The notes beneath the pieces were generated by a model. It was not told the origin of the DNA. It did no database searches and saw only the letters and a program-made list of their open reading frames with translations. The position numbers were made by a program, and so were the translations under genes. A stretch of 64,000 nt of DNA from Candidatus Caenarcanales bacterium (GTDB lineage: Bacteria; Cyanobacteriota; Vampirovibrionia; LMEP-6097): assembly GCA_013216135.1 (NCBI GenBank), contig JABSOS010000011.1, positions 30,168 to 94,167 of the forward strand, read 5' to 3'. This document shows, in pieces, positions 2,918 to 10,256 of the stretch. Every line of letters begins with the position of its first letter. Position 1 is the first letter of the stretch.

Positions 2918-3187
2918 ATGGACTTAAAGCAAGACTATGAAGACCTCTTAATGAAAAACAAGAAGTTAAAAAAAGAGATTAAGTCTAAGGAATGTTTTAT
3001 CAGTAAGCTATTACAGCAAAAAAAAGAGTTGAATGAAAAAGTTACTTTACTATTTAATGACCTAGAAAAGTTTAAGGATTACAGAGCTGAAAGATTTCAT
3101 TTGAGAACCCTCAGGATGCAAAGAGTAGAAATCTTGAAAATGTATAACCTTCAACAGAAAGTCTATAAACAAGCAGAAGGGCGCTAA
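2918..3187 (+). CDS. Small coiled-coil hypothetical protein
   Basis: 89-aa ORF, K/E/L heptad-rich, with AAGGT upstream. Confidence 0.55.
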   Translation: MDLKQDYEDLLMKNKKLKKEIKSKECFISKLLQQKKELNEKVTLLFNDLEKFKDYRAERFHLRTLRMQRVEILKMYNLQQKVYKQAEGR

Positions 3188-3233
3188 AGCTTATAGTACT
3201 TGCGAGTTTATTATTAAATACTGTATTGTTTAA

Positions 3234-3440
3234 TTGGAGCTAATAAATTGGTTCTAGGGGTTTAATCACCTCTCACAACTAGTAGTCAGTAGAGAATGAC
3301 TGACTATATAAATACGACATTCTCTGGGATTTTATTTCCAGAGGATTATAGTGTATGTCCAAGGCTGTAAAGCCCAAAGACTATAATAGTCGACTAGTTG
3401 CGATTGATTAACCTCTGGAATTTTGTTTATAAAACTCCAA
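3234..3440 (+). ncRNA. Candidate structured ncRNA / cis-regulatory leader, family unknown
   Basis: Nested stems 3234-39/3435-40, 3252-68/3405-20, 3276-83/3393-3400, 3283-90/3299-3306, 3315-18/3389-92, 3322-29/3336-43 and 3345-52/3380-87, plus a GNRA hairpin GGCT-GTAA-AGCC (3363-74). G-U pairs work on the + strand. Promoter-like TTGCGA(3200)...TATTGT(3224) upstream. Confidence 0.65.
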
Positions 3441-3457
3441 AACAAAAGGAGTAAGAT

Positions 3458-3940
3458 TTGAATAGATTTTATATCGCATTATTAATTTTAATGGTAAGCA
3501 ACCCAGTATATGCACGAAGAGCAAATATGGTTGGTATTTGGCTTCTAGGGCAAAACACTAGTTTGAGTGATGTATTGACTATTAAAGATATAAAAAGTAG
3601 TGGTATTAAAAAACTTAGGTTAGTTGATTTTGATTATTTAGAAAACTCTACTGATAGGAAAATAGCAGAGAACAAAACGGGCTTCCTAATAGGTAGAAGG
3701 CTCTTCTTTGACGTATCATCTTCAACTATCGATAAATCTTATATGCTTAAATTCAATAAAGATTTTACTGGGGGACAATTTATTAGTCTTGGTAGTGATT
3801 TTGGTGGTTGCCTACCTGAAGATGATCTAAAGATAGAACCTGAATCTTATATTTGTAATTTCCCAGCTTCTAAAACAACTTCTTTGAGTCAAGGTGAAAT
3901 ACTTGAGATAGTAAAACTTTTTAGTAAAGCAAATATATAG
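3458..3940 (+). CDS. Exported hypothetical protein
   Basis: TTG start with AAGGAG SD. Sec-type signal peptide MNRFYIALLILMVSNPVYA. Confidence 0.65.
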   Translation: MNRFYIALLILMVSNPVYARRANMVGIWLLGQNTSLSDVLTIKDIKSSGIKKLRLVDFDYLENSTDRKIAENKTGFLIGRRLFFDVSSSTIDKSYMLKFNKDFTGGQFISLGSDFGGCLPEDDLKIEPESYICNFPASKTTSLSQGEILEIVKLFSKANI

Positions 3941-3973: not shown

Positions 3974-5275
3974 ATGGTGCGTAAAATTACAAGCAAAAAA
4001 AATGCTATTGTTGATAACACTTTTGTTAATCTTGATGCCAAAGAATATTTTACAGAATCAGACTTTGCTGCAATACATGAATTAAATGAAAGTTATGTTA
4101 GGCAAATGTGTTCAAAACAAAGAGGGTTAAACTTACCTGATGAATATTATGCTATTCCTCCTAGACAAGGTTACTTGATTAAAAAAAAGAAGGCATCTGT
4201 TCTAAATACATATGTCAAAGAAGGATCAAATATTCACCCAGCCTATCTTGAAGATCTAAATACTTTCTGTGACTTTGATTCAGAAATTGATTCTTGCATG
4301 GCTTTACTCATGATTTCCTTACCCAACAAATGTAAATTTTTGATATATAACTCTTTAGATCATGCACAGAAAGAAAAGCATGTTTTTTTGAACAATTATT
4401 TAGGCGAGAATATCCTATACAAGTTATTTAGCAAGATTCAAAATGAGTTATCAAGCTCAATTCTATCGAACTATTCAATGCTCATAATTAGGTGGCTAAT
4501 TATCTCAGGAATAACTATCCCACTCAGATTGAAATATTTACATGATTCTTTAATAAGTGGAGATAGTGGATATGATTTTTGTAGTTACTGTGGAAAACAC
4601 TTACCGATAAACAAAAAATATTCCAGTAATCAAATTAGACAAAAAAATTATCTATTTTGCTGTAAAACACATAAGGACGATTTCAACAAAGACTCTTTTT
4701 TAATTAAGGAGTTAGTCTCCTATAGAGAATCCTTTGGCAGAATTTATACGTCTGATAACTATAACAAAATTGAGCCTGATTTTCACCACAAGACGATAGA
4801 GCTTATTGATAACATTTTCGAGAGATTTACACAACTTATTAAAAGACCAAAAAAAATGACTTTAGGTAAGGAGATTAAAACATATTCAAAACTTGACGAT
4901 GTTCGAAAAGAAGTTTTAAAACTATTTAAGTTGAAGAACGAGACTGATATTACTTTTAAAAGATTTGATGATTTTATTGAAAAATACTGTTACAAGCATA
5001 TAAGCTCTGTTGAAAAAAGAAATGAGAAAATAGAAGCAATTATTGATTTGCTCGCTGACGATACACCAAATGAAGAAGCGATTTCAAAAATTGCTGTAGA
5101 TATCTTACCGTCAATCCAAGAACGAATTCTTGCTAATCATCAAAAAAAGAAATCAAAGAAAAAAATAGAAGATGATTTTTATCAAAAATTAATAGAAAGT
5201 CATGATGGTAGGAGTGTAATTCATTACACCCTAATCTCTATAATGCAAAATTATATGAAATCATTTGCAGAGTAA
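3974..5275 (+). CDS. Putative DNA-binding protein (N-terminal HTH, central Cys/His Zn-finger-like motif)
   Basis: FTESDFAAIHELNESYVRQMC resembles a MerR/excisionase-type HTH. CSYCGK...FCCKTH is a treble-clef-like motif. TATAAT at 3961-66 lies 7 nt before the ATG. Confidence 0.55.
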   Translation: MVRKITSKKNAIVDNTFVNLDAKEYFTESDFAAIHELNESYVRQMCSKQRGLNLPDEYYAIPPRQGYLIKKKKASVLNTYVKEGSNIHPAYLEDLNTFCDFDSEIDSCMALLMISLPNKCKFLIYNSLDHAQKEKHVFLNNYLGENILYKLFSKIQNELSSSILSNYSMLIIRWLIISGITIPLRLKYLHDSLISGDSGYDFCSYCGKHLPINKKYSSNQIRQKNYLFCCKTHKDDFNKDSFLIKELVSYRESFGRIYTSDNYNKIEPDFHHKTIELIDNIFERFTQLIKRPKKMTLGKEIKTYSKLDDVRKEVLKLFKLKNETDITFKRFDDFIEKYCYKHISSVEKRNEKIEAIIDLLADDTPNEEAISKIAVDILPSIQERILANHQKKKSKKKIEDDFYQKLIESHDGRSVIHYTLISIMQNYMKSFAE

Positions 5276-6147: not shown

Positions 6148-8343
6148 ATGAATTATCTCTCAGACAAACATTTAGCCAAGCTAAAAAGCTCAGCTATTAC
6201 AGAGGACTCTATAAAGCCCTCTGAAGCTGAAACTATTGACCTTGAAACTATTTTAAATAAAGGCTTTAAAGCATTAACCCCTGATAAAAAAGAATCACTG
6301 TTACAAGAGAAGTATATAAAACTATCTCTATATCTACCATTCTTTGATATTGAAGGGAATAAAATTCAGGATATCAAAACTGGAAAAGAACTTGGAATTA
6401 TAAGACCTGATTACACTGAAGAAGCACAAGCTAAATTTCAAAATCTTCCAAAATACCTATGCTTACCTAAATCTATTCAGTCACGCTTCTATCTTCATTT
6501 CCCCAAAGGCTTTAACTGGATTATGTATTTAGAAAATTACAAAGAGCTTGAAGTAGATGAACCTAAAGGACAAATAGCCCTCACGGAAGGCATTCTCAAG
6601 AGCATTGCAGGAACTAGTAACAACTATCCCACAGTTGGTCTGACATCTGTATTTTGCTTTTGCAAAAATGGTTTAAATTCTCCACTAATACCAGAGCTTA
6701 GAGATTTATTGAAAAATAAAAATATAGATTTTTCAGTAATCTTTGATGGAGACAAGCAACAAAAAACAGGTGTGAAGCAAGCAGAAACAGCACTTGTAGA
6801 AAAAGCTTTCCTCGAAACTGGCAAGAAATTAAGTGTAATAGATCTGCCACAGGAAGAAGGCTGTAAAGGACTGGATGACTTTATTTATACAAAAGGCTCA
6901 GAAGCACTAAAAGAACTTAAACCTAGATATATAGAGACCCCTATTATTAAAAACTTAAAGCTTAAATTAATTCCAGATATTCCAAAGAATGCACTTCCTG
7001 ATATATATAAAGAGTGTATAAAAGATACTGAAAGAAATGTAGAGAATTGTATAGAAGCAGTACCAATGGTTTTATTCACCCAAGGAGCAGGCTTTATAGG
7101 GAATAAAGCTAAGCTAAATGGTAAATTCCCTAATCTTTATGCTGAAACCCTTGCTTTGACTACTGGTGGAAAAACTACAGCTGCTAATAGATATAGCTAT
7201 CCTTTAAGGTTCATAAATAAAGCTCTGGAAAAGGAGTATAGAGCTAAACTTGAAGCTGGTGAAGAGAATGTGAAATCTGAAGAACTGACTATCGCTGGAT
7301 TCACACAACAGGGTATTGAATTAACTTTGGCTCAAAGAAAACATCCAGTGCTGATCATGCTTGAAAACAGTGAGTTTGAGAATTTCTATGCTCTTCTAAA
7401 TGCAGATTACAATGCTAGTTTAAGTAGCTTTGTTACTAAAGCCTATGACAATTTGCCATTAATTCCTATGCACAGTAAGGGTAACTTATTAAACAGCTCT
7501 TTAAAGTTAAGTACTATCTATGATCCAGCTATTAGTATCGCTGGAGTTCATACCTTTACTTCAATGCTTAGCTCCAAGCCTAAAGGCTATAAAGACACAG
7601 GCTTTGATAATCGCTTCATGAAATATGTTGGGAAAAACAATAAAGGTATAAGAATTCCTGAAATAAAGTCAATACCCCAAGAGCTTGAGCAAAAGCTTTT
7701 AGATATCTACACCCTAGTTCATAATCACTTTAGAAGCTTAGATGAAACATTAGAGTTCAAGTATTCTGAAGAAGCAAAGCAAATCTATCACCGTTTCTAT
7801 GACCAGTATAAAGACTTTGAAGATGAGAGTCCAGAAAGTAGCTTGCTACCTTATATGAGACGTTCTGTATGTGATTTCTTACCTAAGTTATGTTTACAGT
7901 TTGAGATCATAGAAAGAGCTGAACTAATAGTAAATAACTTTGAAGCTGGAGAGTGGCAAGAAAGATTCCAGCAAGCTCTTGCAGAAAATAAATTATTTAT
8001 CTCAAAAGAAGTAATGCTCAAAGCTATAGAGTGGTCAAAATATTTTATTAAAAGTGCAAAGTATGTAATTAATAATTACTATGATTCTGATGCCGAGTTC
8101 GACTCCAGAGCTGACAAGGTACTCAAACTATTAGCGAAGTTTCCAAAAGGAATACAAGCTACTTCTTTAAGACGTGAAGCAGGTATGCACTATAAAGGAA
8201 CTACAGCTAAAGAGTTTTATGAGTTACTTGATTACTTAGAAGATATGGATCAATTAAACGTAAAACAAGATCCAAACAATAAGAGATCAAAGCTAGTCAC
8301 TCTCAAAAAGCACCTAATCACCAACCATCACAAGGACGAGTGA
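6148..8343 (+). CDS. Primase-replicase: TOPRIM (DUF3854-like) plus DUF3987/YfjI-like P-loop domain
   Basis: TOPRIM motifs IALTEGILKS, IFDGD and KGLDDFI. C-terminal PNLY..LALTTGGKTT, SEF, GFDNRF and a terminal wHTH-like segment. SD AAGGAGGT. Confidence 0.75.
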   Translation: MNYLSDKHLAKLKSSAITEDSIKPSEAETIDLETILNKGFKALTPDKKESLLQEKYIKLSLYLPFFDIEGNKIQDIKTGKELGIIRPDYTEEAQAKFQNLPKYLCLPKSIQSRFYLHFPKGFNWIMYLENYKELEVDEPKGQIALTEGILKSIAGTSNNYPTVGLTSVFCFCKNGLNSPLIPELRDLLKNKNIDFSVIFDGDKQQKTGVKQAETALVEKAFLETGKKLSVIDLPQEEGCKGLDDFIYTKGSEALKELKPRYIETPIIKNLKLKLIPDIPKNALPDIYKECIKDTERNVENCIEAVPMVLFTQGAGFIGNKAKLNGKFPNLYAETLALTTGGKTTAANRYSYPLRFINKALEKEYRAKLEAGEENVKSEELTIAGFTQQGIELTLAQRKHPVLIMLENSEFENFYALLNADYNASLSSFVTKAYDNLPLIPMHSKGNLLNSSLKLSTIYDPAISIAGVHTFTSMLSSKPKGYKDTGFDNRFMKYVGKNNKGIRIPEIKSIPQELEQKLLDIYTLVHNHFRSLDETLEFKYSEEAKQIYHRFYDQYKDFEDESPESSLLPYMRRSVCDFLPKLCLQFEIIERAELIVNNFEAGEWQERFQQALAENKLFISKEVMLKAIEWSKYFIKSAKYVINNYYDSDAEFDSRADKVLKLLAKFPKGIQATSLRREAGMHYKGTTAKEFYELLDYLEDMDQLNVKQDPNNKRSKLVTLKKHLITNHHKDE

Positions 8344-8380
8344 TTCAGATTCAAGCTCTAGGCTTGATTATAAGAGGAAA

Positions 8381-8560
8381 ATCACAGAATCACCTGATTT
8401 CTTAGCTCTTTAAATATCTACTTTAAATTTCAAAATTAAAAACGAAGCAAATATAAGAACCTAAAAGATGCGTGATTTTGTGATAATCCTTCAATATCGG
8501 CCGAGAGAGCGGTTATTCACGTCACACTTAAGCAGTGAAAGCACGTGACAGTGTGATTTT
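8381..8560. repeat. TCAC/GTGA repeat cluster, putative replication origin
   Basis: ATCACAGAATCAC (8381-93) is inverted to GTGATTTTGTGAT (8472-84). Also TCACGTCACAC (8517-27) and CACGTGACAGTGTGA (8542-56). Lies directly downstream of the replicase. Confidence 0.5.
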
Positions 8561-8611
8561 TAATGAAAAGATAAATAAATTTAGTTAATATAATCAAAAG
8601 GAAACCTTTAA

Positions 8612-10201
8612 ATGAAAGTAGCACTTTATGTAAGAAAAAGCTCTGAAGACTCCAGTAAACAAATCCAGAGTATTGAAAATCAATTAGAGATTTTAAAAGC
8701 TAAAGCAAAAAAAGAAGATCTTAAAATTATTGAGATTTATCAAGAATCTAAGTCAGCAAAGAAACCATATAAAAGAGAAGCTTTTAATAAAATGCTTGCA
8801 GATTTACAAGACAGAAAATTTGAAGCTATTTTATGCTGGAAATTAGATAGATTAAGTCGTAACCCTATTGAAGGTGGCATAATACAGCACCTTCTATTAG
8901 AAGGAAGTCTAAGCCAAATCATCACTTATGAAAGACGTTACTATCCAAGTGACAATAGCTTAATGATGAATATGGAGCTAGGAATGGCGGCTGAGTATTC
9001 ATTAGCTTTAGGCAAAAATGTAAAAAGAGGAATGAATTTTAAAGTAGATAAAGGCGTTTACCCCAATACAGCACCTTTAGGATATCTAAATATAACCAAG
9101 CCTAATGGTGAAAAGACTATAGAACTAGATCCTGAAAGAGCACCTATCGTTCAAAAATTATGGCGTATGCTCCTAAGTGGTAATACTGTAATGGGGGAAC
9201 TTGTTGAGCAAGCAGCTTCTATGGGACTTAGAACCAGAGCTTCAGCTAATACACCAGAGAAGAAAGTTTCAAGACATGGCTTGCATTGTATTTTCTCTAA
9301 TCCTTTCTATTATGGAATGTTTAGATGGGCAAACGAATTACATCATGGTACTCACTCCACTATGGTTACTAAAGAAGAGTTTGATAAAGCTCAAAAGATT
9401 ATCTCAGCTAAAAAATGCGCTCCAAGAAAAGCTAAATATAAATTCCCTTTAAAGGGTTTTATTACTTGCGGAGAATGCGGAGCAAGTGTAACAGCAGAGC
9501 ATAAGAATAAAAAAAGAGCTGATGGTTCTATCCATCATAGAATTTATTATCGCTGTACTCACAGAAGAAAAGATTATGACTGCAAGCAACCAATGATTAT
9601 TGAGGCTGAACTTGAAGAGCAAATTATAGAATTACTTGATTCAATTAAAATTAATAAGGCTTTTGTTTCATGGGTGAAAAAATGGCTAGTAGATTTTAGC
9701 CAAGAACAATCTGAAAAGCAAAAAACTATTCGAGAAATCCAAAAGAATCAACTCAACAAAATCGATAATCAAATCGAAAGATTACTTGAGATGAGAATCA
9801 ATGAAGAGATAGACGCTGAACTTTTCAAAATTAAAAAAGATAACTTGGTTCTGGATAAAAAAGCTATCGAAAAAGAAATGAGTGTTAATACAGATATGGA
9901 CGATTCTAGAATTGATACTACTGTAGAGATATTGGATTTCTGTAAACAGGCTAAGTATTTATTTGAAAATGGAGATTATAACGATAAACAATTAGTTTTA
10001 AATACTTTAGGTTCACGACTTTATCTAAAAGACAAAAAACTAAGAGTAGAGCTAGCTAAACCCTTCCAACTAATACAAGACTCAGTATCTCAAGAATGGG
10101 TGCTAAATCCTAGGTTCACCACCCTCAAAACAAAGACCTCGCAAGGCGATGATACACTTACGAGGTCTCTTATCGATAATGGGGCAACCGACGGGATTTG
10201 A
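8612..10201 (+). CDS. Large serine recombinase (resolvase + recombinase + Zn-ribbon + coiled coil)
   Basis: YVRKSS catalytic Ser, WKLDRLSRN, APLGY, NPFYYG, CGECG...YYRC. Confidence 0.95.
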   Translation: MKVALYVRKSSEDSSKQIQSIENQLEILKAKAKKEDLKIIEIYQESKSAKKPYKREAFNKMLADLQDRKFEAILCWKLDRLSRNPIEGGIIQHLLLEGSLSQIITYERRYYPSDNSLMMNMELGMAAEYSLALGKNVKRGMNFKVDKGVYPNTAPLGYLNITKPNGEKTIELDPERAPIVQKLWRMLLSGNTVMGELVEQAASMGLRTRASANTPEKKVSRHGLHCIFSNPFYYGMFRWANELHHGTHSTMVTKEEFDKAQKIISAKKCAPRKAKYKFPLKGFITCGECGASVTAEHKNKKRADGSIHHRIYYRCTHRRKDYDCKQPMIIEAELEEQIIELLDSIKINKAFVSWVKKWLVDFSQEQSEKQKTIREIQKNQLNKIDNQIERLLEMRINEEIDAELFKIKKDNLVLDKKAIEKEMSVNTDMDDSRIDTTVEILDFCKQAKYLFENGDYNDKQLVLNTLGSRLYLKDKKLRVELAKPFQLIQDSVSQEWVLNPRFTTLKTKTSQGDDTLTRSLIDNGATDGI

Positions 10202-10256
10202 ACCCGCGAATACCGGAATCACAACCCGGGGCCTTAACCACTTGGCGACGGCTGCC
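10180..10256 (-). tRNA. tRNA-His (GTG)
   Basis: GGCAGCCGTCGCCAAGTGGTTAAGGCCCCGGGTTGTGATTCCGGTATTCGCGGGTTCAAATCCCGTCGGTTGCCCCA. Has the G-1:C73 pair, GTG anticodon, TTCAA T-loop and encoded CCA. Confidence 0.97.

Follow-up and report, generated by a model that had tools for sequence, protein, structure and literature searches.

The 64,000-nucleotide (nt) stretch of DNA analyzed here (contig JABSOS010000011.1 of a Candidatus Caenarcanales bacterium; hereafter the window, whose positions serve as coordinates throughout) contains a gap, at 3188–3457, without any open reading frame (ORF) of at least 40 amino acids (aa). The gap lies between an 89-aa ORF (2918–3187) and a 160-aa ORF (3458–3940), and holds a folded element on the + strand, with a core at 3251–3420 and outer extensions that take it to 3234–3440. 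An earlier interpretation of these letters (the sequence-only reading) had placed a multibranched RNA in this gene-free gap, and both the lack of genes and the nested helices are borne out: the minimum free energy (MFE) structure of the window copy holds every helix it had named, at the same coordinates, and these helices recur in homologs. The parts of the element, the linker and the gene behind it are as follows; helix numbers are those of a 42-copy alignment described below, and SD stands for Shine-Dalgarno sequence.

3234–3251, + strand: 5' extension, in which TTGGAG and ATAAAT pair with 3424–3440 in the MFE structure
3234–3239/3435–3440, + strand: outer stem TTGGAG/CTCCAA of the MFE structure
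3252–3268/3405–3420, + strand: stem P1 (helices 1 and 2), 5' strand TTCTAGGGGTTTAATCA, 3' strand TGATTAACCTCTGGAA
3276–3283/3393–3400, + strand: stem P2 (helix 3), CAACTAGT/ACTAGTTG, the hypervariable helix
3283–3290/3299–3306, + strand: hairpin H4 (3283–3306; helix 4), with the loop AGAGAATG at 3291–3298, complementary to 3318–3326
3315–3318/3389–3392, + strand: stem H5 (helix 5), CGAC/GTCG
3322–3329/3336–3343, + strand: stem P3 (helix 6), 5' strand CTCTGGGA, 3' strand TTCCAGAGG (segment 3336–3344)
3345–3352/3380–3387, + strand: stem P4, enclosing the internal loop GTATGTCCAA (3353–3362)/CAAAG (3375–3379)
3363–3374, + strand: hairpin P5, GGCT-GTAA-AGCC, found in both the MFE structure and the alignment
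3401–3404, + strand: conserved CGAT between the 3' strands of P2 and P1
3421–3457, + strand: linker to the gene, with TTTTGTTTATAAAA, CTCCAA (3435–3440), an A-rich spacer and the SD GGAG (3448–3451)
3458–3940, + strand: cargo gene of 160 aa, with a TTG start, an N-terminal signal-peptide-like segment and no assigned family

The + strand of 3234–3440 folds at −75.1 kcal/mol, compared with −42.4 ± 4.1 kcal/mol for 200 dinucleotide shuffles (z = −7.97; 0 of 200 as good), while the fold of the − strand is weaker (−61.3 kcal/mol, z = −6.4). Using blastn, we find a second copy with 79% identity in the same genome, a 99% copy in a sister species, and copies of about 70% identity in further genera of that family. 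From 9 copies aligned with MAFFT, RNAalifold derives a consensus of 53 pairs, 21 of them with compensatory changes; this alignment was used to build a covariance model (R1). Across 42 distinct copies (44 matches), 94.8% of cells pair and 42 of the 53 pairs have changed on both sides, which none of 500 shuffles reaches; moving partners by 1–3 columns drops pairing to 31–50%. This larger alignment was fitted to R1 and is as such biased towards the structure, whereas the 9-copy MAFFT result is independent of that fit.

All 8 helices are backed by covariation in the 42-copy alignment. Compensatory changes affect 10 of 15 pairs in P1 (92.9% and 93.6% of cells paired in helices 1 and 2), 6 of 6 in P2 (96.8% paired), 5 of 7 in H4, and 13 of 13 in P4 and P5 (helices 7 and 8). 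G-U pairs, which the sequence-only reading had assigned to the + strand, are frequent on that strand in the alignment (columns 10–213, GU in 34; columns 33–67, GU in 29; columns 151–164, GU in 31), which makes the sense strand of the downstream gene the functional one. The element is a real, structurally constrained and strongly conserved folded RNA.

The most conserved unpaired bases are GUAUGUCCA and AAAG, which flank P5. Specifically, AUGUCCA and AAAG of the internal loop are conserved at 90–97% or more, and UAUGUYCA plus YAAAR are both kept in 71 of 94 copies. Many copies also carry a hairpin, P0, that abuts P1 (52 of the 92 with sufficient upstream sequence), and its loop is GNRA-like in 18 of those. 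The window copy lacks a clean P0, and its 5' extension occupies the same place. The 11-nt GNRA-tetraloop receptor has the form CCUAAG...UAUGG (PMC2691827), and by reading, the internal loop around P5 seems to resemble this receptor with extra bases.

Two further pairings compete with this fold. In the first, the H4 loop pairs with the segment 3315–3329, which holds the 5' strand of H5, the junction and the 5' strand of P3; in the window, UAGAGAAUG (3290–3298) faces CAUUCUCUG (3318–3326), with AGAGAATG (3291–3298) and CATTCTCT (3318–3325) as the core. The sequence-only reading had already seen this 8-nt complementarity as a possible competing pairing, and the alignment agrees, with 95.1% of cells paired (28–64% in slid controls) and compensatory changes in 5 of 8 pairs. 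We count 28 duplex types, and duplexes of at least 7 bp form within 30 of 42 copies, compared with 398 of 1722 non-self combinations (23%). In alphaproteobacterial copies, this pairing requires the opening of H4. In the second, the 3' strand of P3 pairs with the 3' strand of P1, i.e. CCAGAGG (3338–3344) with CCTCTGG (3412–3418) in the window; here pairing reaches 96.2% of cells, with compensatory changes in 5 of 7 pairs (a level that 0 of 500 shuffles attain; slid controls 34–78%). Because both pairings exclude parts of H5, P3 and outer P1, together they define a second state (state B) next to state A, the main fold. A large part of this covariation distinguishes clades from one another; the independent events behind it are few, a handful in the case of the P3-3'/P1-3' helix. 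As two pairings incompatible with the main fold also covary, we take the RNA to be bistable: by its sequence conservation, it can probably adopt two competing shapes, both kept by covariation.

Searches with R1 recover 5 copies in the source genome, on contigs C3 (the window), C49, C34, C14 and C20, and matches in 16 of 31 genomes of the order, while a sample of 150 other genomes of the phylum yields none. Full-length matches of 82–100 bits are found in Alphaproteobacteria (Rhizobium, Phyllobacterium, Celeribacter, Microvirga, Amylibacter, and a metagenome-assembled genome (MAG) of Rhodospirillales), and weaker ones in a Rickettsiales MAG and some IMG/VR contigs. Within a sample of 151 Pseudomonadota genomes, 6 have R1 matches, with up to 6 copies each. 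Of the 4 copies in one Rhizobium genome, two form a tandem with a spacing of 573 nt (L298:928–1657), and behind each of these two comes a small membrane protein belonging to the "MD.YNFW.DLL" family, which is the largest cluster of downstream proteins (14 of 77). Scans with sequence patterns extend the list. A first, too-loose pattern gave R1 matches at E ≤ 1 in only 8 of 80 listed genome loci and, among viral contigs, in 11 loci, 6 of them below E 0.001; a specific pattern returned 50 metagenome contigs and 1 viral contig, and R1 gave 59 matches over the 60 sources searched. Blastn against plasmids and phages finds nothing with a Vampirovibrionia-type copy, and 3 Shinella plasmids and no phage with an alphaproteobacterial copy. 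For example, on the Shinella plasmid pShin-06 (L400:2478–3700) the copy sits directly behind the resolvase of a Tn3-family transposon, with an ISL3 insertion at the position of the cargo gene. This patchy, cross-phylum distribution is as expected for a passenger of mobile DNA. The sequence-only reading had tied the RNA to a serine-recombinase island, and that link gives way to a multicopy, cross-phylum module; the element is more general than that reading could tell.

At gathering threshold, Rfam matches nothing in the window but a tRNA elsewhere, and at E ≤ 10 no family matches the window copy, including RF02221. The latter, sRNA-Xcc1, is a small RNA (sRNA) family of 87 model positions with a gathering score of 53 bits, known from Xanthomonas campestris and from integron cassettes, transposons, plasmids and prophages. 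We do find it, below threshold, on related copies. Co-linear matches of 22.6 and 24.6 bits lie on the 3' half of two alphaproteobacterial copies, a whole-genome search gives 34.2 and 21.4 bits on two copies of the source genome, and a batch search gives sub-threshold matches at 9 of 20 loci with a best score of 36.3 bits, for an overall range of 21–36. In the Pseudomonadota sample, sub-threshold RF02221 matches coincide with R1 matches in two genomes (G039 and G123); in whole-genome searches, such matches reach an E of about 4e-4. Neither the window copy nor any related copy reaches the gathering score. The consensus fold of the family (closing stem, hairpin domain and second hairpin) is nonetheless present in the 3' half, which, taken alone, forms a three-way junction like that of Xcc1 in 8 of 8 tested copies, including that of the window; by alignments, the P3-3'/P1-3' helix is the closing stem of the Rfam model. 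The variable strand of P2 is then displayed in a hairpin loop of the isolated 3' half. This second hairpin, which would show the P2 3' strand in state B, has a pairing potential of 88.4% and covariation not above that of shuffles (218 of 500).

The two families share more than a fold. The 3' half, from the 3' strand of P3 to that of P1, aligns co-linearly with the three-way junction of sRNA-Xcc1, and both occur in multiple, sometimes tandem, copies that lie immediately ahead of a cargo gene on mobile DNA. Xylella, for example, has seven sRNA-Xcc1 copies, five of them in tandem in a genomic island (PMC12189769); the integron cassette most widespread in Xanthomonas is reported to carry sRNA-Xcc1 ahead of symE (bioRxiv 10.1101/2025.06.18.660453), and in some APSE phages it precedes an ORF6N gene (bioRxiv 10.1101/2020.03.17.996009). 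In an Escherichia coli O104:H4 prophage (L335:3922–4140), we find the same Xcc1 layout between a Rha-family (rha) gene and an ORF6N gene. By contrast, the two have different sequences in the internal loop, P3, only a short hairpin in the element, carries an insert of about 60 nt in Xcc1, and the taxa are Vampirovibrionia and Alphaproteobacteria here. Bona fide sRNA-Xcc1 is above cut-off in 24 of the 151 Pseudomonadota genomes, and R1 detects just 3 of 30 bona fide loci, weakly, with 11 bits on the E. coli copy.

A 5' partner strand lies upstream in the bona fide loci as well. The 3' strand has a perfect upstream complement of at least 7 nt in 24 of 24 such loci (L305–L328), compared with 145 of 552 non-self combinations, and in 17 of 24 (68 of 552 non-self) it is also complementary to a site within 60 nt before the downstream gene. 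Because one strand complements both sites, the Xcc1 family appears to couple the same helix to the downstream ribosome-binding site (RBS), and the upstream half of the Xcc1 loci evidently mimics, in its complementarity, the RBS region of the following gene. This property of the 3' strand, a criterion that is unpublished for Xcc1 loci, is not found in the subfamily of the window. We read the element as a diverged, longer relative of sRNA-Xcc1, and the Rfam model would appear to describe half of a larger structure. Kinship with a named sRNA family means that the element is not categorically new; the view that it belongs to no named family holds at the Rfam threshold, and fails to the extent that its 3' half is a distant sRNA-Xcc1 look-alike. 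In the portions of main texts that we searched, the sRNA-Xcc1 literature contains no description of the two-state architecture, the upstream half, the link to cargo or the occurrence in Vampirovibrionia and Alphaproteobacteria, and the searched portions likewise yield no description of the RBS-mimicking upstream half of Xcc1 loci.

What follows the RNA points to a role in cis. A co-oriented, SD-preceded ORF lies within 220 nt in 77 of 94 distinct copies, with a median gap of 52 nt; among the 17 copies without one, 9 lack 120 nt of downstream sequence. The 77 downstream proteins form 39 sequence clusters and are mostly small, with signal peptides or membrane segments. No Pfam family is found for 27 of 35 representatives, and the remainder include an XRE regulator, a DNA methylase, PD-(D/E)XK and GIY-YIG nucleases, and a TM2/zinc-ribbon protein. 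ESM Atlas look-ups with the 160-aa protein of the window and a 97-aa alphaproteobacterial protein return hypothetical proteins only.

The segment between the RNA and these genes carries candidate output structures. A hairpin, P6, starts within or right behind the last P1 bases in 89 of 91 copies, and a script finds a hairpin followed by a U-run within about 60 nt in 21 of 42, with those of L274, L273, L297 and L301 doubtful. Several genera have a second, sequence-conserved terminator with a U-run that ends about 12 nt before the SD, which leaves no room for a separate promoter; the gene there is therefore reachable by read-through only. A terminator of the form AAAAUCUCUCC...GGAGGGAUUUUUU is conserved in sequence across genera, about 20–60 nt past the RNA (L255, L256, L257, L271, L272, L280 and L288). 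The arms of this terminator resemble the P3 arms and the H4 loop, so that it may have a part in the switch. On the hairpin/terminator region, the Rfam Phe_leader model gives matches below its cut-off of 55 bits (33 and 30 bits, at L256:1450–1519 and L359:1731–1796), which probably reflect generic terminator likeness.

The window copy itself has no intrinsic terminator in a scan of 3100–3520. Its CTCC (3435–3438) pairs either with 3236–3239, in the outer stem, or with the SD at 3448–3451; this alternative, noticed in the sequence-only reading, is present in the sequence, yet amounts to 4 bp and is confined to the window copy and its 99%-identical twin (L009). By eye, GGAG is followed by U before about 13 of 23 of these genes, compared with 19% genome-wide, and we do not rely on this excess because the copies are related and the count is informal.

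The explanation that we favor, with a confidence that goes no further than an even chance, is that the element acts in cis, as a two-state leader gating the cargo gene behind it. The RNA would be the 5' leader of the transcript that carries this gene, i.e. the 160-aa gene at 3458 in the window. State A is compact, with the long P1-P2 stem closing two junctions that bear H4, P3 and the P4-P5 arm. In state B, the H4 loop would capture the junction and the 5' strand of P3, the freed 3' strand of P3 would pair with the 3' strand of P1, and the 3' half would adopt the three-way junction of Rfam sRNA-Xcc1. The choice of state would set what the segment behind P1 can do. For most relatives this would mean attenuation, via the hairpin or intrinsic terminator about 12 nt before the RBS, and for the window copy translation control, with CTCC either closing the outer stem or masking the SD GGAG. 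Sequence comparison provides the covariation of both states, the strand, the position and orientation relative to genes and the kinship with Xcc1, and we count the coupling of the same helix to the RBS in the sister family in favor of a leader. Transcription would start just upstream; the element would need a promoter of its own, since the gene before it is divergent in 2 of the genome's 5 copies. The states would alter termination or translation, and the trigger may be a factor, a ligand, processing or co-transcriptional kinetics.

Several findings weigh against such a leader. In the full-length RNA, state A is far more stable, and state B may therefore be limited to a processed 3' fragment. 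A U-run behind the hairpin is missing from about half of the copies, and covariation tying either state to the terminator could not be shown. The window copy lacks both P0 and a terminator, which leaves a 4-bp CTCC/GGAG pairing as its proposed output. The variable strand of P2 is not complementary to the downstream RBS beyond expectation (3 of 42 self vs 102 of 1722; 9 of 42 vs 17.6% in a second test), and in the subfamily of the window it has no complement within 1.4 kb. A consensus scan of 3100–3520 gives 0 promoter-like and 0 terminator-like sites. The sigma70-like promoter that the sequence-only reading placed just 5' of the element thus dwindles to a weak 8/12 match by eye (TTGCGA-18-TATTGT). 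Three metatranscriptome runs of one study, available as contigs, have no contig over 3234–3440, which is no evidence either way. Lastly, sRNA-Xcc1 is reportedly trans-acting, as the title, and only the title, of Chen et al. 2011 has it, and the published relative is a discrete 88-nt sRNA with mapped ends (PMC2996969). As an aside on promoters, a candidate embedded in the RNA, with a −35-like TTGATA in the 3' strand of P1 and a −10-like box in the P6 loop, was seen by eye in a few genera only; it is unconserved, and we rejected it.

The relation to sRNA-Xcc1 also allows for a stand-alone sRNA gene, in which a precursor would be processed and a 3' half of about 85–100 nt, in state B, would pair with other transcripts, as is reported for the trans-acting sRNA-Xcc1, or as C4 RNA does in blocking genes further along its own operon. 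The latter, the C4 antisense RNA of phages P1 and P7 (immI operon, RF01695), is similar to the sister family Xcc1, in that an upstream RNA would pair with the translation start of the gene behind it. In C4 RNA, upstream copies of the target sites pair within the precursor, which is processed by RNase P. The element itself has no RF01695 match and a different fold, and no target complementarity was found in the subfamily of the window. A stand-alone sRNA would suit the Xcc1-like fold of the 3' half in 8 of 8 copies with its P2 strand exposed in a loop, the co-linear RF02221 matches below threshold (9 of 20 loci and the whole-genome searches) and the terminator in many copies. The P1 c4-icd-ant operon, in which the RNA is encoded upstream in the same transcription unit, provides a working analogy (PMC8198154), and sRNA-Xcc1 itself is an abundant discrete RNA, seen in Xanthomonas as an 88-nt species with mapped ends by northern blot (PMC2996969) and in enterohemorrhagic E. 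coli as an abundant RNA with low ribosome cover (PMC5331693). We consider a free-standing sRNA the main alternative to the leader, yet rather unlikely: no target complementarity of the variable loop is found near the copies, its 6 nt are too short to define distant targets, and the hairpin that would display it pairs at 88.4% without covariation beyond shuffles. Moreover, the spacing between terminator and SD makes the downstream gene dependent on read-through, and the co-orientation of genes in 77 of 94 copies is unexpected for free-standing sRNA genes.

A ligand could also select the state. The element would then be an orphan riboswitch, with the invariant internal loop (GUAUGUCCA/AAAG around P5) as its pocket. 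Riboswitches and attenuators likewise have a structured core, two exclusive conformations and terminator or RBS-masking platforms before a gene, and the complex junction with near-invariant unpaired nucleotides across phyla, the two conserved and mutually exclusive folds, and the varied output on one core (terminators here, RBS pairing in the Xcc1 type) all agree with this. By contrast, riboswitches are expected to regulate genes of a shared pathway, and the downstream genes here are functionally unrelated (39 clusters among 77; 27 of 35 representatives without Pfam), which makes ligand sensing less likely. The conserved loop is present in both states, with no obvious discrimination between them, and the likeness to a tetraloop receptor together with the GNRA-like P0 loops of 18 copies would explain its conservation without a ligand. 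The closing P1-P2 helix, at more than 20 bp, is also far beyond usual switching helices. We regard a riboswitch as improbable. Of the roles listed by the sequence-only reading for an element-encoded regulatory RNA, a riboswitch-like leader or an immunity/antisense RNA fit best, given the 77 of 94 co-oriented genes and a nearest relative that is an antisense-type sRNA family; its location on mobile islands stands, and its island-specificity does not.

The neighborhood of the window copy includes the following genes, in addition to those listed above.

1842–2534, + strand: TIR-domain protein (PF10137, CAP12/Pycsar-type TIR), with PDC-S35 as best PADLOC model at 279 bits
6148–8343, + strand: DUF3854/DUF3987 primase-helicase-like protein
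8612–10201, + strand: large serine recombinase, within the island 6148–10201
10183–10255, − strand: tRNA, adjoining the recombinase

The window copy is thus located between the TIR gene and genes without assigned function, which are followed by the DUF3854/DUF3987 protein, the recombinase and the tRNA. The TIR gene is two genes upstream of the RNA and is itself preceded by a gene for a 315-aa protein without an assigned family. At its 3' end, the recombinase ORF overlaps the tRNA on the − strand by 19 nt; a search for direct repeats marking the island ends gave nothing convincing, and none for the end opposite the tRNA. Other copies in the genome adjoin PD-Lambda-1 (C14, L287), Hachiman HamA/HamB (C20, L288), a SIR2-like gene, toxin-antitoxin genes and transposases, and the C49 copy follows a 193-aa fragment of an IS110-family (Transposase_20) protein and a reverse transcriptase (RT). 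Using tblastn with four query proteins, we find that the 3.08-Mb assembly has 3 RT and 4 large serine-recombinase loci, each of which lies within 8 kb of one of the 5 copies; the RNA therefore marks the mobile and defense islands of this genome.

This clustering is what would be expected of a scaffold or guide for an island protein (RT, recombinase or IS110-type enzyme), or of a self-cleaving ribozyme on such islands; one copy does follow an IS110-family fragment, and the larger structure encloses the 5' end mapped for sRNA-Xcc1 (PMC2996969). The details argue otherwise. An RT is found 0.7–4 kb from 3 of the 5 copies, in varying order and strand; across the 5, order, distance and strand differ and immediate neighbors share no homology, so that recombinases and RTs, at varying distance, are the sole neighbors in common. 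RT and recombinase homologs occur at 2 of 101 loci each, both from the source genome (most loci span about 3 kb), and no homolog of the 160-aa or the 433-aa protein lies near the other 4 copies. Alphaproteobacterial copies are in ordinary chromosomal neighborhoods without RT- or recombinase-type genes, and no Rfam ribozyme, retron or other family is matched. Given the varied layout, the unrelated neighbors and these counts, we take no RT, recombinase or 433-aa protein as a dedicated partner, and neither the 433-aa protein, the primase nor the recombinase is a conserved one. Unlike RNAs associated with retrons or other RTs, which have an adjacent RT in the operon, the element has no RT in the window and one at 2 of 101 loci overall, and unlike the bridge or seek RNAs of IS110/IS1111 elements, only the C49 copy is near a Transposase_20 fragment, with none at the window copy and the 3 others. 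A ribozyme or scaffold is therefore very unlikely.

We give even less credence, bordering on none, to a role as single-stranded DNA, i.e. as a single-strand origin or promoter during transfer or replication of the island. The setting on mobile islands that carry primases and recombinases, together with a long imperfect stem and good folding of both strands, would allow for it. The wobbles, however, are G-U (G-T in DNA) pairs on the sense strand of the downstream gene, whereas a single-strand promoter would fold on the template strand. The stems covary freely, and there is therefore no conserved duplex −35/−10. In addition, some copies are in ordinary alphaproteobacterial chromosomal settings, the sister family occurs in a double-stranded DNA prophage, and relatives are abundant RNAs (PMC2996969, PMC5331693).

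If the cis-acting leader is correct, the element would be a portable RNA module, with a defined two-state architecture, that controls accessory genes carried by mobile DNA, and would provide a handle on the silencing or induction of defense-island cargo. It would also extend the family to the nonphotosynthetic relatives of cyanobacteria, and change the reading of sRNA-Xcc1, a widely annotated family whose Rfam model apparently represents half of a larger conserved structure. A broader view, which we advance tentatively and regard as doubtful, is that Rfam sRNA-Xcc1 represents no more than the 3' half of a much larger cargo switch with two states, which spreads horizontally. This switch would be present in at least two phyla (Vampirovibrionia and Pseudomonadota), stand before defense, toxin or uncharacterized cargo, and sense the state of the element or the cell (e.g. 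infection, transfer, stress or a small molecule), activating the cargo solely in response to it.

One contig from the RNA libraries aligns at 4033–4200 with 100% identity over 168 nt to the gene for the 433-aa protein, and represents RNA or carried-over DNA.

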